IMG/VR virus record: IMGVR_UViG_2740892487_000006
Source of the DNA: a virus
Taxonomy: Duplodnaviria > Heunggongvirae > Uroviricota > Caudoviricetes
Strand: one strand, 5' to 3'
Length of the DNA: 35,498 bases
Position numbers and translations under genes: made by a program. This document shows positions 25,723-29,811 of the stretch, in pieces. The stretch's first letter is position 1, and every line of letters starts with the position of its first letter. Under the pieces are notes generated by a model. That model was not told the DNA's origin, ran no database searches, and saw only the letters and a program-made list of their open reading frames with translations.

Positions 25723-28396
25723 ATGGCAGTAAAAATTTCAGGTGTACTGAAAGACGGCACAGGAAAACCGGTACAGAACTGCACAATCCAGCTGAAAGCA
25801 AAACGTAACAGTACCACGGTGGTGGTGAACACGCTGGCATCTGAAAATCCGGATGAAGCCGGGCGTTACAGTATGGACGTTGAGTACGGTCAGTACAGCG
25901 TTATTCTGTTGGTGGAAGGATTCCCGCCGTCACATGCCGGGACCATCACAGTGTATGAAGATTCCCGACCCGGTACGCTGAATGATTTTCTCGGTGCCAT
26001 GACGGAGGATGATGCCCGTCCGGAGGCACTGCGCCGTTTTGAGCTGATGGTGGAAGAGGTGGCGCGTAACGCGTCCGTGGTGGCACAGAACACGGCAGCC
26101 GCGAAGAAGTCAGCCAGTGATGCCAGCACATCAGCCCGTGAGGCGGCAACCCATGCGACTGATGCTGCAGGCTCAGCACGCGCAGCCAGCACGTCAGCCG
26201 GACAGGCCGCGTCGTCGGCTCAGTCAGCGACTTCCAGCGCAGGAACGGCATCAACAAAGGCCACTGAAGCATCAAAAAGTGCTGCCGCTGCAGAGTCCTC
26301 AAAAAGCGCGGCAGCTACCAGTGCCAGTGCCGCGAAAACGTCAGAAACGAATGCTGCAGCGTCACAACAATCAGCAGCCACTTCTGCATCCACCGCGACT
26401 ACGAAAGCGTCAGAAGCTGCCACCTCAGCCCGGGATGCGGCGGCTTCAAAAGAGGCGGCAAAATCATCAGAAACGAACGCATCCTCGAGCGCCAGTAGCG
26501 CAGCTTCCTCGGCAACAGCGGCAGGAAATTCCGCGAAGGCGGCAAAAAACGTCAGAGACGAACGCCAGGTCTTCTGAAACGGCAGCGGGACAGAGCGCCT
26601 CGGCTGCGGCAGGCTCAAAAACAGCGGCTGCGTCGTCTGCCAGTGCAGCGTCAACAAGTGCCGGGCAGGCCTCAGCCAGTGCCACCGCCGCCGGAAAATC
26701 GGCAGAAAGCGCCGCATCGTCTGCTTCAACAGCCACAACGAAGGCTGGCGAAGCCACTGAACAGGCCAGCGCAGCAGCGAGGTCTGCTTCCGCAGCGAAG
26801 ACATCCGAAACGAACGCGAAAGCGTCGGAAACCAGCGCAGAATCCTCAAAAACGGCTGCCGCATCGTCAGCCAGTTCGGCGTCGTCATCGGCATCATCTG
26901 CGTCTGCTTCAAAAGATGAGGCGACCAGACAGGCGTCAGCAGCGAAGGGTAGCGCCACGACGGCATCCACGAAGGCGACAGAGGCAGCTGGCAGTGCGAC
27001 GGCAGCAGCTCAGAGCAAAAGTACGGCGGAATCTGCAGCAACGCGCGCTGAGACAGCGGCAAAACGGGCAGAGGATATTGCATCCGCCGTGGCGCTTGAG
27101 GATGCGAGCACGACGAAAAAGGGGATAGTACAGCTCAGCAGTGCGACCAACAGCACTTCCGAGTCACTGGCGGCAACGCCAAAAGCCGTTAAGGCCGCGT
27201 ATGACCTGGCTAACGGGAAATACACCGCACAGGATGCAACGACAGCACAGAAAGGGATAATCCAGCTAAGCAGCGCGACCAACAGCACGTCTGAAACGCT
27301 GGCGGCAACGCCAAAGGCAGTAAAAGCAGCCAATGACAATGCTGAGAAACGTCTGCAGAAAGATCAGAACGGTGCGGATATCCCTGGCAAAGACACCTTT
27401 ACGAAAAATATTGGTGCCTGCCGTGCCTTCGGTGGGTCAGTAAGCACAACAACAGGAAACTGGACGACTGCACAGTTTATCGAGTGGCTGGATTCTCAGG
27501 GAGCATTTAACCATCCATACTGGATGTGCAAGGGTTCCTGGTCTTATGGCAATAATAAAATCATTACTGATACTGGCTGCGGTAATATTCATCTCGCCGG
27601 AGCTGTCATTGAAGTAATGGGGATAAAGTCAGCGATGACGATCCGCATTACCACACCGACCACCTCCACTGGTGGTGGAACAACTAACGCCCAGTTTACC
27701 TATATTAATCACGGAACAGATTATTCACCTGGCTGGCGAAGGGACTATAACTCCAGAAATAAGCCAACGGCATCAGAGATCGGGGCGTTACCGTCAGGTG
27801 GAACAGCAGTATCATCAGTTAATCTGTCTTCAAAAGGTCGGGTAACCGCGCTGACAGACAATACGCAGGGGGCAACAGGTCTTGAGTTATACGAGGTGTA
27901 TAACAACGGATATCCAACAGCGTATGGAAATATCATTCACCTGAAAGGGATGACAGCCGTTGGCGAAGGTGAGTTACTCATCGGCTGGAGTGGTACAAGC
28001 GGTGCTCATGCTCCGGCATTTATTCGTTCACGACGGGATACGACCGACGCAAACTGGTCGCCGTGGGCGCAGCTTTACACCTCGGCTCATCCTCCTGCAG
28101 AGTTTTATCCAGTCGGTGCACCAATCCCGTGGCCATCAGATACCGTTCCGTCTGGTTATGCCCTGATGCAGGGGCAGACTTTTGACAAATCTGCTTACCC
28201 GAAACTTGCAGCCGCTTATCCGTCAGGCGTGATCCCTGATATGCGTGGCTGGACGATTAAGGGCAAGCCCGCCAGTGATCGAGCCGTATTGTCTCAGGAA
28301 CAGGACGGCATTAAATCACACACCCACAGCGCCAGCGTATCCAGTACGGATTTGGGGACGAAAACGGCTTTGTTGAATAAATCAGATATCGGGTAA
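25723..28396 (+). pseudogene. stf: Side tail fibre Stf, frameshifted by one extra A and 3'-truncated by an IS903 insertion
   Basis: MAVKISGVLKDGTGKPVQNCTIQLKAKRNSTTVVVNT... matches lambda Stf; break at A6 26544-26549; the downstream frame carries the Ala/Ser-rich repeats and [20 protein letters not shown]; the last codons and stop are supplied by the IS inverted repeat. Confidence 0.85.
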
Positions 28397-29421
28397 GTCT
28401 CCCCCGTAGCGGGTTGTGTTTTCAGGCAATACGCACGCTTTCAGGCATACCTGCTTTCGTCATTTTGTTCAGCGCTCGTACCAGGGCCATAGCCTCTGCA
28501 ACCTGACCATCGTAGTCACGCAGTGTCAGTGAACCTCCGAACAGCTGTTTTACCCGGTACATCGCCGTTTCCGCTATCGAGCGACGGTTATAATCTGTTG
28601 TCCATTTCCACCGCGCATTACTCCCGGTCAGCCGCTGATTCGCAACAGCACGGTTACGGTCTGCATATTCACCGGGCCAGTAACCCGCGCCTTTTCGGGG
28701 CGGGATAAGCGCGCTGATTTTCTTACGCCGCAGTTCATCGTGACAGAGCCGGGTGTCGTAAGCGCCGTCTGCCGATGCTGCCCTGATTTTTCTGTGAGTC
28801 TGCCGGATAAGACCCGGGAAGGCTTCTGAGTCCGTCACATTGTTCAGCGACAGGTCTGCACAGATGATTTCATGTGTGTTGCTGTCAACTGCCAGATGCA
28901 ACTTTCGCCATATACGACGGCGTTCCTGGCCATGCTTTTTGACTTTCCACTCGCCTTCACCGAAGACCTTCAGCCCGGTGGAATCAATTACCAGGTGTGC
29001 GATTTCACCCCGGGTGGGCGTTTTGAAACTGACATTAACCGACTTTGCCCGCCTGCTGACACAGCTGTAATCCGGGCAGCGTAGCGGAACGTTCATCAGA
29101 GAAAAAATGGAATCAATAAAGCCCTGCGCAGCGCGCAGGGTCAGCCTGAATACGCGTTTAATGACCAGCACAGTCGTGATGGCAAGGTCAGAATAGCGCT
29201 GAGGTCTGCCTCGTGAAGAAGGTGTTGCTGACTCATACCAGGCCTGAATAGCTTCATCATCCAGCCAGAAAGTTATGGAGCCACGGTTGATGAGGGCTTT
29301 ATTGTAGGTGGGCCAGTTGGTGATTTTGAACTTTTGCTTTGCCACGGAACGGTCTGCGTTGTCGGGAAGATACGTGATCTGATCCTTCAACTCAGCAAAA
29401 GTTCGATTTATTCAACAAAGC
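28366..29421 (-). mobile_element. IS903-family insertion sequence (IS5 family), about 1056 bp with terminal inverted repeats GGCTTTGTTGAATAAATC...
   Basis: Inverted repeats at 28366-28386 and 29401-29421; a single DDE transposase ORF between them; flanking 9-mers differ (GACGAAAAC vs CCCCGAACG), so there is no target-site duplication. Confidence 0.9.
28422..29390 (-). CDS. IS903-family DDE transposase
   Basis: 322-aa ORF MKDQITYLPDNADRSVAKQKFKITNWPTYNKALINRGS... filling the IS between its inverted repeats. Confidence 0.9.
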   Translation of the reverse strand: MKDQITYLPDNADRSVAKQKFKITNWPTYNKALINRGSITFWLDDEAIQAWYESATPSSRGRPQRYSDLAITTVLVIKRVFRLTLRAAQGFIDSIFSLMNVPLRCPDYSCVSRRAKSVNVSFKTPTRGEIAHLVIDSTGLKVFGEGEWKVKKHGQERRRIWRKLHLAVDSNTHEIICADLSLNNVTDSEAFPGLIRQTHRKIRAASADGAYDTRLCHDELRRKKISALIPPRKGAGYWPGEYADRNRAVANQRLTGSNARWKWTTDYNRRSIAETAMYRVKQLFGGSLTLRDYDGQVAEAMALVRALNKMTKAGMPESVRIA

Positions 29422-29811
29422 CCCCCGAACGCTGCGGGTATTATCCTCCCACCGCCAGATATGCCACCACTGGGGCAATTTGTCATACTGCCACCATACC
29501 AGCCTGCTCGACCGGCTGGCTTTTGACCCAAGCTGGCTCTCCGGTATGCTGAATGCAGCACACTGGAGTCTCAAAAATGTACATCGACAACTTCATTTAC
29601 CCCGCTACAATTGCTACCTGTAGCGGGTGTAGCAGGCTAAATGCTTGCAAGGAAAAATAAAACACCCTAATCAGCTCATAAATCAGCCAGCCTTGTCGCT
29701 AATCAGACATCCAGATACCAGACTGTGACACAGTGCGACAGCTCACCGTTGGAACCGCTACAACCCTGCTACACCCTCTTTCAAATCACAGTAAGCCGAT
29801 ACAGTAAATAA

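Follow-up and report, generated by a model that had tools for sequence, protein, structure and literature searches.

The locus raises the question of how an insertion sequence came to stand between the tail-fibre gene of a prophage and an island of unrelated DNA, with flanks that do not match each other. The window, i.e., the whole stretch of 35,498 nucleotides that was analysed, represents bases 1-35498 of contig LAWZ01000071.1 of E. coli RCE11, an isolate from Crohn's disease. The earlier note had proposed that an IS-mediated adjacent deletion, or a recombination between two IS copies, had removed the right end of the prophage.

The assignment of the element to the IS903 family was borne out. 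It is an intact and complete IS903B (IS5 family, IS903 group) of 1,057 bp on the minus strand, with 100% nucleotide identity over 1,057 nt to copies annotated as 'IS5-like element IS903B family transposase'. The span that had been given for it, 28357-29430, does contain the element, but the IS proper occupies positions 28366-29422, and the end of that span was one base short. Perfect 18-bp terminal inverted repeats (GGCTTTGTTGAATAAATC) are present on the stf side (28366-28383) and on the island side (29405-29422). Between them, a gene call, the translation and two Pfam domains (DDE_Tnp_1_5, 3.6e-40; DDE_Tnp_1, 8.6e-33) define a transposase on the minus strand with an intact ORF of 307 aa (28422-29345). 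The longest transposase ORF reaches 29390. The length of 1,057 bp, the perfect 18-bp repeats, the single DDE transposase and an identity of 99.9-100% are shared with annotated IS903B copies of E. coli and Klebsiella genomes and plasmids, whereas the window copy lacks the usual 9-bp direct repeat and its flanks stem from two different loci.

The left flanking 9-mer is GACGAAAAC (28357-28365), and uninterrupted stf runs on from it with CACATCGTCG. The right flanking 9-mer is CCCCGAACG (29423-29431); intact islands have ...TATATTTCAG in front of it. A recount revealed that only three of nine bases are identical and that no 5-mer or longer word is common to both sides within 20 nt of the ends, and the absence of a 9-bp target-site duplication was thereby confirmed. 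Four further IS903B copies from complete E. coli genomes, which match the window copy in length and inverted repeats, served as positive control. All four had perfect 9-bp duplications, and in all four the same gene was found on either side, showing that they are simple insertions. The missing duplication is a property of the insertion event and not of the element, and the identification as IS903B stands. Where IS903B is present it is usually multi-copy, with a median of two places per IS903B-positive E. coli genome.

The left flank is the tail-fibre gene stf on the plus strand (25723-28365), of which the 5' 2,642 nt (880 codons) are present; CFSAN061762 and N9 have an intact stf of 3,024 nt, to which this part is 99.9% identical. 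Its Pfam domains are Phage_fiber_2 and Collar. The alignment to intact stf ends exactly at 28365, the last base before the IS, and thus the IS indeed truncates the gene. The cut follows codon 880 of 1,007, and the comparison with intact relatives showed that the segment missing from the window is the 3' 382 nt (127 codons). Behind ...STDLGTKT the reading frame continues into the element with ALLNKSDIG and a stop codon. It had been stated that the final residues and the stop are supplied by the inverted repeat; this is true for the six residues ALLNKS, but the last three (DIG) and the stop (28384-28396) lie just inside the repeat.

The prophage is Qin, the fixed cryptic prophage of the ydfJ locus. 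It is collinear with Qin of N9 with 99.9% identity over 28.15 kb, it has the gene content and order of Qin (Q/ydfT, cspF, cspB, essD, rrrQ, rzpQ, cspI, gnsB, ydfO, nohA ... stf), and an identical gpJ was found at the ydfJ locus in 10 of 10 other contexts. Neither end of Qin is present on the contig. Cargo and late-gene order are shared with Qin of K-12. In contrast to the K-12 version, the window Qin has kept a complete head and tail module, and two elements interrupt it, IS903B within stf and an IS1 located downstream of ydfT (Q).

The right flank is neither stf nor tfa, as had been noticed before. It begins with the last 104 nt (33 codons and stop) of a yfjI-like DUF3987 gene of 521 codons on the plus strand (29423-29526), the translation of which is the C-terminus of the full-length protein; the 5' 1,462 nt are missing. 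Homology to intact islands starts exactly at the right end of IS903B, and position 29423 corresponds to position 11022 in ten intact-island loci, within the gene at 10919-12484. The first complete island gene is a YagK/YfjJ-family gene on the minus strand (29812-30444; PF11726), the exact protein of which occurs in intact islands. It is followed by genes for a DUF932 protein (33015), an antirestriction protein (33891), RadC (34347), a DUF987 protein (34886) and the CbeA antitoxin (35133), identified in part by Pfam. Beyond the window the source contig runs into CbtA, ypjA, ypjCB and ygaQ, which places the island at the ssrA/ypjA locus.

The right flank was thus correctly recognized as a CP4-57-like island, based on both the gene module and the boundary to ypjA. 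The window contains its ypjA-proximal part (29423-35498, plus strand), which is 99.95% identical to a copy that adjoins ypjA (L012). The island left part, with the integrase by the tmRNA gene, is replaced by IS903B and Qin in the contig, and no tRNA or tmRNA was found within the window. CP4-57 of K-12, which is located at ssrA, has the right flank ypjA-ypjCB-ygaQ and the module of yfjI-like, yfjJ-like, DUF932, antirestriction, RadC, DUF987, CbeA and CbtA genes in common with the window island. The latter is a sequence variant distinct from CP4-57, and its intact relatives carry an OLD-ATPase/UvrD pair in place of the K-12 cargo. Among 5,426 complete E. coli genomes none had a match to positions 29423-30554, and only two matched the remaining island, at 90%. 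With the YfjJ-like protein as query, a scan of species-representative genomes yielded only distant relatives (at most 66% identity), and neither a carrier species nor an empty site; empty sites were obtained from an exact-protein look-up of the YfjJ-like gene. The near-absence from complete E. coli genomes, together with some carriers that have non-E. coli flanks, made a chimera across species worth considering. It was rejected as unnecessary, because the closest copy of the island adjoins an E. coli ypjA and the contig itself continues into ypjA-ypjCB-ygaQ.

In K-12 J53 and in N9, which bears the same Qin at 99.9% identity, the Qin locus and the island locus are 1.14-1.19 Mb apart and in opposite orientation. 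On the K-12 map, Qin lies within the Ter macrodomain. Because the loci are distant and oppositely oriented, the join has the topology that an inversion junction or a false join would have. The stf-IS903B-island junction was absent from the 5,426 complete E. coli genomes, exact searches with the left and the right junction gave no match in IMG/VR or the JGI metagenomes, and the predicted ancestral junction of IS, GACGAAAAC and the stf 3' end had no match in IMG/VR. No protein on record corresponded to the frameshifted Stf N-fragment or to the 165-aa ORF. The NCBI gene table leaves out pseudogenes, and has no calls across stf or ypjA in locus L033.

The way in which the genome was sequenced bears on the interpretation of the join. 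The RCE11 library was an unpaired Ion Torrent PGM library with fragments of 200-300 bp and 200-nt chemistry, the reads of several colonies were pooled, and the assembly was performed with MIRA 4.0. According to the depositors, only about 60% of the homopolymer-type errors were corrected. The window differs from N9 over 28 kb by 16 one-base indels, all of them in A/T runs, versus nine substitutions; the island part has the same homopolymer-indel pattern, and the window sequence is an uncorrected Ion Torrent consensus. At 26544 an A-run has one surplus A, which additionally disrupts the stf frame. A genuine frameshift was considered at this position and was rejected: because all 16 indels versus N9 are in A/T homopolymers, the extra A is probably a sequencing error.

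The same properties of the library bear on the two ends of IS903B. Each IS/host boundary is within one read length, and therefore both boundaries are real: in RCE11 both stf and the yfjI-like gene truly adjoin an IS903B end. In contrast, the IS of 1,057 bp is much longer than the unpaired reads of about 200 nt, and thus no read links its two flanks. The library cannot show that both IS ends belong to one copy. The contig starts within IS1 at a depth of 213 nt, roughly the length of a read, and therefore contig building was governed by repeats. In a benchmark with unpaired Ion Torrent data, each MIRA run had 7-12 map-aligned contigs, one to four of which were misassembled, mostly where transposons or rRNA genes lie, and read mapping failed to expose these errors (PMC5320493). 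'Large misassemblies' by MIRA have also been reported for IS-rich Francisella (PMC8590783). The present case has much in common with these repeat-induced chimeric contigs (PMC5320493, PMC8590783), i.e., a repeat longer than the reads, an unpaired library, the assembler, a break at a transposon and the homopolymer error signature. The difference is that the misassembly of the present contig is deduced from method and geometry.

The explanation that we favour, and which we regard as fairly probable, is that RCE11 contains two ordinary IS903B insertions that were cross-joined by the assembler into a chimeric contig. One copy would interrupt stf of Qin after codon 880 and a second one the DUF3987 (yfjI-like) gene of the ssrA island; a separate 9-bp duplication would presumably flank each of them. 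MIRA 4.0 would have entered one copy and left via the other, so that the two IS ends would be from different copies and the flanks mismatched. The stf 3' end, tfaQ, the Qin right end and the int-proximal part of the island would then persist on other contigs, and the first three are probably still elsewhere in the genome. The predicted partner junctions are IS-GACGAAAAC-CACATCG... and ...TATATTTCAG-CCCCGAACG-IS. The cross-join is supported by the multi-copy habit of IS903B, by the rarity of the junction and by the simple insertions found in four of four cases elsewhere. Moreover, for the join to be real, about 1.19 Mb would have to be inverted, and one breakpoint would fall in Qin, close to the terminus. 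On the other side, if IS903B were single-copy in RCE11 the join would be real, and the assembly halted at IS1 yet crossed IS903B, possibly because MIRA did not recognize IS903B as a repeat.

The strongest competitor, which we nevertheless consider unlikely, is that about 1.19 Mb of the chromosome is really inverted; the window would then show one of two hybrid junctions. Such an inversion may result from homologous recombination between inversely oriented IS903B copies in stf of Qin and in the yfjI-like gene of the island, or from a single-step intramolecular replicative transposition of IS903B. The opposite orientation of the two loci in K-12 J53 and N9 is precisely what an inversion junction calls for, and a recombinant IS is expected to carry mismatched 9-mers. 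There is precedent in E. coli for IS-mediated inversions that span much of the chromosome (PMC4173774). The hybrid IS elements at inversion and deletion breakpoints, e.g., of the LTEE rearrangements described there, share with the window copy an intact IS, non-matching flanks, the joining of distant loci and a flank orientation that matches an inversion junction. They differ from it in that the physical linkage of its flanks is beyond the reach of the data type. The reciprocal junction, yfjI 5' - CCCCGAACG - IS903B - GACGAAAAC - stf 3' - tfaQ, would be expected elsewhere in the genome. Large intra-replichore inversions can be just slightly detrimental, but those that disrupt Ter are deleterious (PMC2134941), and the Qin endpoint would be in Ter. 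In addition, the inverted segment would contain an rrn operon and the rpsP-rplS cluster, the junction is missing from every other genome searched, the unpaired 200-nt library permits no read-level support for an inversion, and a false join gives the identical sequence with fewer assumptions. If the inversion were true, both Qin and the ssrA island would be split, a portion of the Ter macrodomain would be displaced, and a configuration that is deleterious in laboratory reports would be fixed in the gut isolate RCE11.

The mechanism of the earlier note fares considerably worse. It holds that the 3' end of stf, tfa and the right end of the prophage were lost through an adjacent deletion by IS903B or through recombination between two directly repeated copies; the left part of the island would have gone with them, and a single IS would have been left. 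The missing duplication and the truncation of both flanking genes agree with it, adjacent deletions are within the ability of IS903-type elements (PMC2723962), and with just one IS copy left it would be understandable that MIRA passed through IS903B. However, an adjacent deletion calls for co-oriented flanks with dispensable DNA between them, and in K-12 J53 and N9 the flanks are oppositely oriented and 1.14-1.19 Mb apart. The prophage is Qin itself, with the cargo cspF, cspB, essD, rrrQ, cspI, gnsB, ydfO and nohA, decayed and immobile, and over 28 kb it is 99.9% identical to the N9 copy at ydfJ, while the island is at ssrA/ypjA. A deletion between these loci would cost the cell roughly one quarter of its chromosome, which would be lethal, and would leave the two flanks wrongly oriented relative to each other; otherwise, an undocumented prior rearrangement would be needed to place Qin beside the island. 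A deletion is therefore very improbable, and the loss of the prophage right end is unsupported, since the join fits an inversion junction or a false join. A simple insertion of IS903B into stf with a miscounted duplication, for which nothing speaks but the intact IS inside a gene, is refuted for all practical purposes, because the 9-mers are identical at only three of nine positions with no other register that yields a repeat, and because the right flank, already from its first base on, corresponds to internal sequence of the DUF3987 gene in ten independent intact islands and not to stf; the earlier note was right that this record, with its flanks from different loci, does not show such an insertion.

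Taken together, an assembly chimera, an inversion and a deletion are all known phenomena. The case is a caution that an IS without a target-site duplication in a contig from unpaired short reads proves neither a deletion nor any other rearrangement. The safe conclusion is modest, namely that in RCE11 stf of Qin and the yfjI-like gene of the island each adjoin an IS903B end. A real join would add another case to the IS-mediated inversions already known, remarkable only in that a natural isolate would have one inversion endpoint within the Ter macrodomain.

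An intact IS903B element of 1,057 bp was found at positions 28366-29422. It is bounded at both ends by the perfect 18-bp inverted repeat GGCTTTGTTGAATAAATC and is, over its full length, 100% identical to E. coli copies annotated as IS903B. Its minus-strand ORF, with the domains DDE_Tnp_1_5 and DDE_Tnp_1, is uninterrupted, and it is a genuine IS903B. At least one match is present in 2,021 of 5,426 complete E. coli genomes, at a median of two places. The abutting 9-mers, GACGAAAAC on the left (28357-28365) and CCCCGAACG on the right (29423-29431), are identical at only three of nine positions, and no repeat of at least 5 nt was found in any register near the element ends. 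As a positive control, four other IS903B copies were taken from complete genomes. All four, each 1,057 bp long and within one gene, had a perfect 9-bp duplication, and thus its absence, which the earlier note had reported and the recount verified, is a real property of the record. It is well established that IS copies at rearrangement breakpoints can lack matching duplications, and chimeric contigs caused by repeats are equally familiar.

As claimed before, the element truncates stf. Between 25700 and 28365 the window has 99.9% identity to a phage tail-fibre gene of 3,024 nt (1,007 codons) in intact prophages, and the alignment ends exactly at 28365. Of the 1,007 codons, 880 were retained and 127 were lost, and the IS extends the truncated ORF by ALLNKSDIG and a stop codon. 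In intact prophages the gene is followed by tfaQ, pinQ, ydfK, ynfT and truncated ydfJ, and the alignment to these relatives, which had been proposed, revealed that the 127 codons and then these genes are the segment missing beside the IS. The visible prophage (214-28365) is collinear with the element of E. coli N9 (99.9% identity) and is Qin. The order in N9 is ydfT (Q), cspF, cspB, essD, rrrQ, rzpQ, cspI, gnsB, ydfO, nohA, a complete head and tail module, stf, tfaQ, pinQ, ydfK, ynfT and ydfJ'; the K-12 Qin has the same cargo. In N9, the left end of Qin has already deteriorated through IS1, ISEsa1 and IS3. In 10 of 10 other genomic contexts, the identical gpJ protein belongs to a prophage at the ydfJ locus whose right end is complete. 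Positions 1-213 are the terminal 213 nt of a second IS in the prophage, an IS1 100% identical to other copies, which comparison with N9 places 84 nt downstream of the antiterminator gene ydfT (Q). The contig thus begins about one read length inside IS1, the point at which MIRA broke it.

Right of the IS, neither stf nor tfa follows, again in agreement with the earlier note, but the 3' end of a DUF3987 (yfjI-like) gene and CP4-57-type island genes. The alignment to intact islands starts at the first base past IS903B; position 29423 corresponds to position 11022 in ten intact-island loci, inside the 521-codon DUF3987 gene, which reads TATATTTCAG before and CCCCGAACGCTG after the breakpoint. Just its last 33 codons and the stop are left in the window. 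A YfjJ-like gene (29812-30444, minus strand), the exact protein of which is encoded in many contigs with an intact island, is present, and DUF932, antirestriction, RadC, DUF987 and CbeA-antitoxin genes are found downstream. The window contains no tRNA or tmRNA. The best-matching island (L012, 99.95%) adjoins ypjA, and the source contig continues past the window with CbtA and then ypjA, ypjCB and ygaQ, the genes that border CP4-57 on its right side at ssrA. Among CP4-57-type islands at this locus, that of the window is a rare sequence variant: 29423-30554 had no match in the 5,426 complete E. coli genomes, and the rest (to 31500) had two, at 90%. The collection lists the exact YfjJ-like protein in 196 blocks, which represent at least six distinct chromosomal contexts, and in some of these (L005) the flanking DNA does not match E. 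coli. This suggests that the variant is mobile and shared between Enterobacteriaceae.

Traced through a DUF987 protein that bears a SNP, the window is bases 1-35498 of LAWZ01000071.1 (118,733 nt; GCA_001631005.1), from E. coli RCE11, which belongs to phylogroup A and was isolated from a Crohn's disease patient (LAWZ00000000; PMC5517970). MIRA 4.0 was run on the combined unpaired Ion Torrent PGM reads (200-300 bp fragment library, 200-nt chemistry) of several colonies, and a homopolymer corrector used afterwards cut artificial indels only about 2.5-fold (PMC5517970). Over 28 kb, the window differs from N9 by 16 one-base indels (14 insertions, 2 deletions) versus nine substitutions. The indels, all 16 within A or T homopolymers, lie at 3169, 3898, 4452, 4895, 7186, 8475, 8496, 9154, 12102, 12189, 12196, 14241, 16720, 25027, 25705 and 26544. 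The island part showed the same pattern against the near-identical L012, with one-base indels at about 31035 and 32601. Such indels are an error signature of Ion Torrent data. The indel at 26544 frameshifts stf, that at 7186 apparently frameshifts the large terminase gene, and homopolymer indels probably cause apparent frameshifts in other window genes as well; therefore, apparent pseudogenes in the window are untrustworthy. Just past the window (11557-15665 of the source-contig locus; contig about 36.4-40.5 kb), the roughly 4 kb of ypjA lack a gene call in the deposited annotation, presumably because homopolymer errors shift the frame of this long autotransporter gene as well.

Each boundary between IS and host fits within one read, and therefore RCE11 truly has IS903B ends at stf codon 880 and in the DUF3987 gene. 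However, no 200-nt unpaired read can tie both ends of a 1,057-bp element to one copy. Probably, RCE11 would carry two simple IS903B insertions, one in stf and one in the DUF3987 gene, which the assembler cross-joined. In benchmarks of MIRA with unpaired Ion Torrent reads, each run had 1-4 misassembled contigs among its 7-12 map-aligned ones; the errors lay chiefly at transposons and rRNA genes and escaped read mapping (PMC5320493). Large misassemblies were also reported for IS-rich Francisella (PMC8590783).

The geometry of the two loci bears on the alternatives. In K-12 J53, Qin stf, tfaQ ... dcp read along the minus strand at 2.06-2.07 Mb, and the island runs to ypjA along the plus strand at 3.21 Mb. 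In N9, ssrA and intA occupy the minus strand at 1.15 Mb, the island extends toward lower coordinates, and Qin J, stf ... dcp run toward higher coordinates at 2.31-2.35 Mb. The window therefore joins points 1.14-1.19 Mb apart in opposite orientation, a topology that matches one inversion junction or a false join. The Qin endpoint presumably lies within the Ter macrodomain, based on the K-12 map. A real chromosomal inversion between Qin stf and the ssrA island is mechanistically possible and would produce this topology, and inversions mediated by IS elements were common in the long-term evolution experiment (PMC4173774). Nevertheless, it is rather unlikely, as inversions with an endpoint in the Ter macrodomain are deleterious (PMC2134941) and IS903B normally makes simple insertions (4 of 4 controls). 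The adjacent deletion or two-copy recombination favoured in the earlier note finds no support: a deletion cannot yield the join, because it gives the wrong relative orientation of stf and island and would cost the cell about one quarter of its chromosome, with an rrn operon and genes for ribosomal proteins in the lost part. A deletion following some undocumented earlier rearrangement is thus quite improbable. One simple IS903B insertion has practically no chance, because both flanks are interior fragments of unrelated genes. The earlier interpretation thus has partial support: the record does not contain a simple insertion, but neither the deletion nor the loss of the prophage right end is supported.

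In intact relatives (L003-L010, about 12600-20600), the DUF3987 gene is followed by alpA, a 413-aa hypothetical gene and an OLD-family ATPase (AAA_15, OLD-like TOPRIM) paired with a UvrD helicase, which looks like a Gabija-type defence pair. Variable cargo follows, either HNH/CTD11-MC7-DUF2326 or an N6_N4 methyltransferase. This candidate defence region is exactly the part unlinked to the island in the RCE11 contig. The N9 ssrA island (1142736-1150691) has shrunk to about 8 kb, is bounded by IS1 copies, contains intA, a holin fragment, flagellin, TnpB, an antitermination protein and a toprim protein, and leads straight into glaH-lhgO-gabD, with ypjA and its neighbours deleted. Here, IS-mediated erosion at the locus of the RCE11 island is real and plainly visible. 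No new kind of system is present here; the components are the known IS903B, the known prophage Qin and a variant of the CP4-57-type island.
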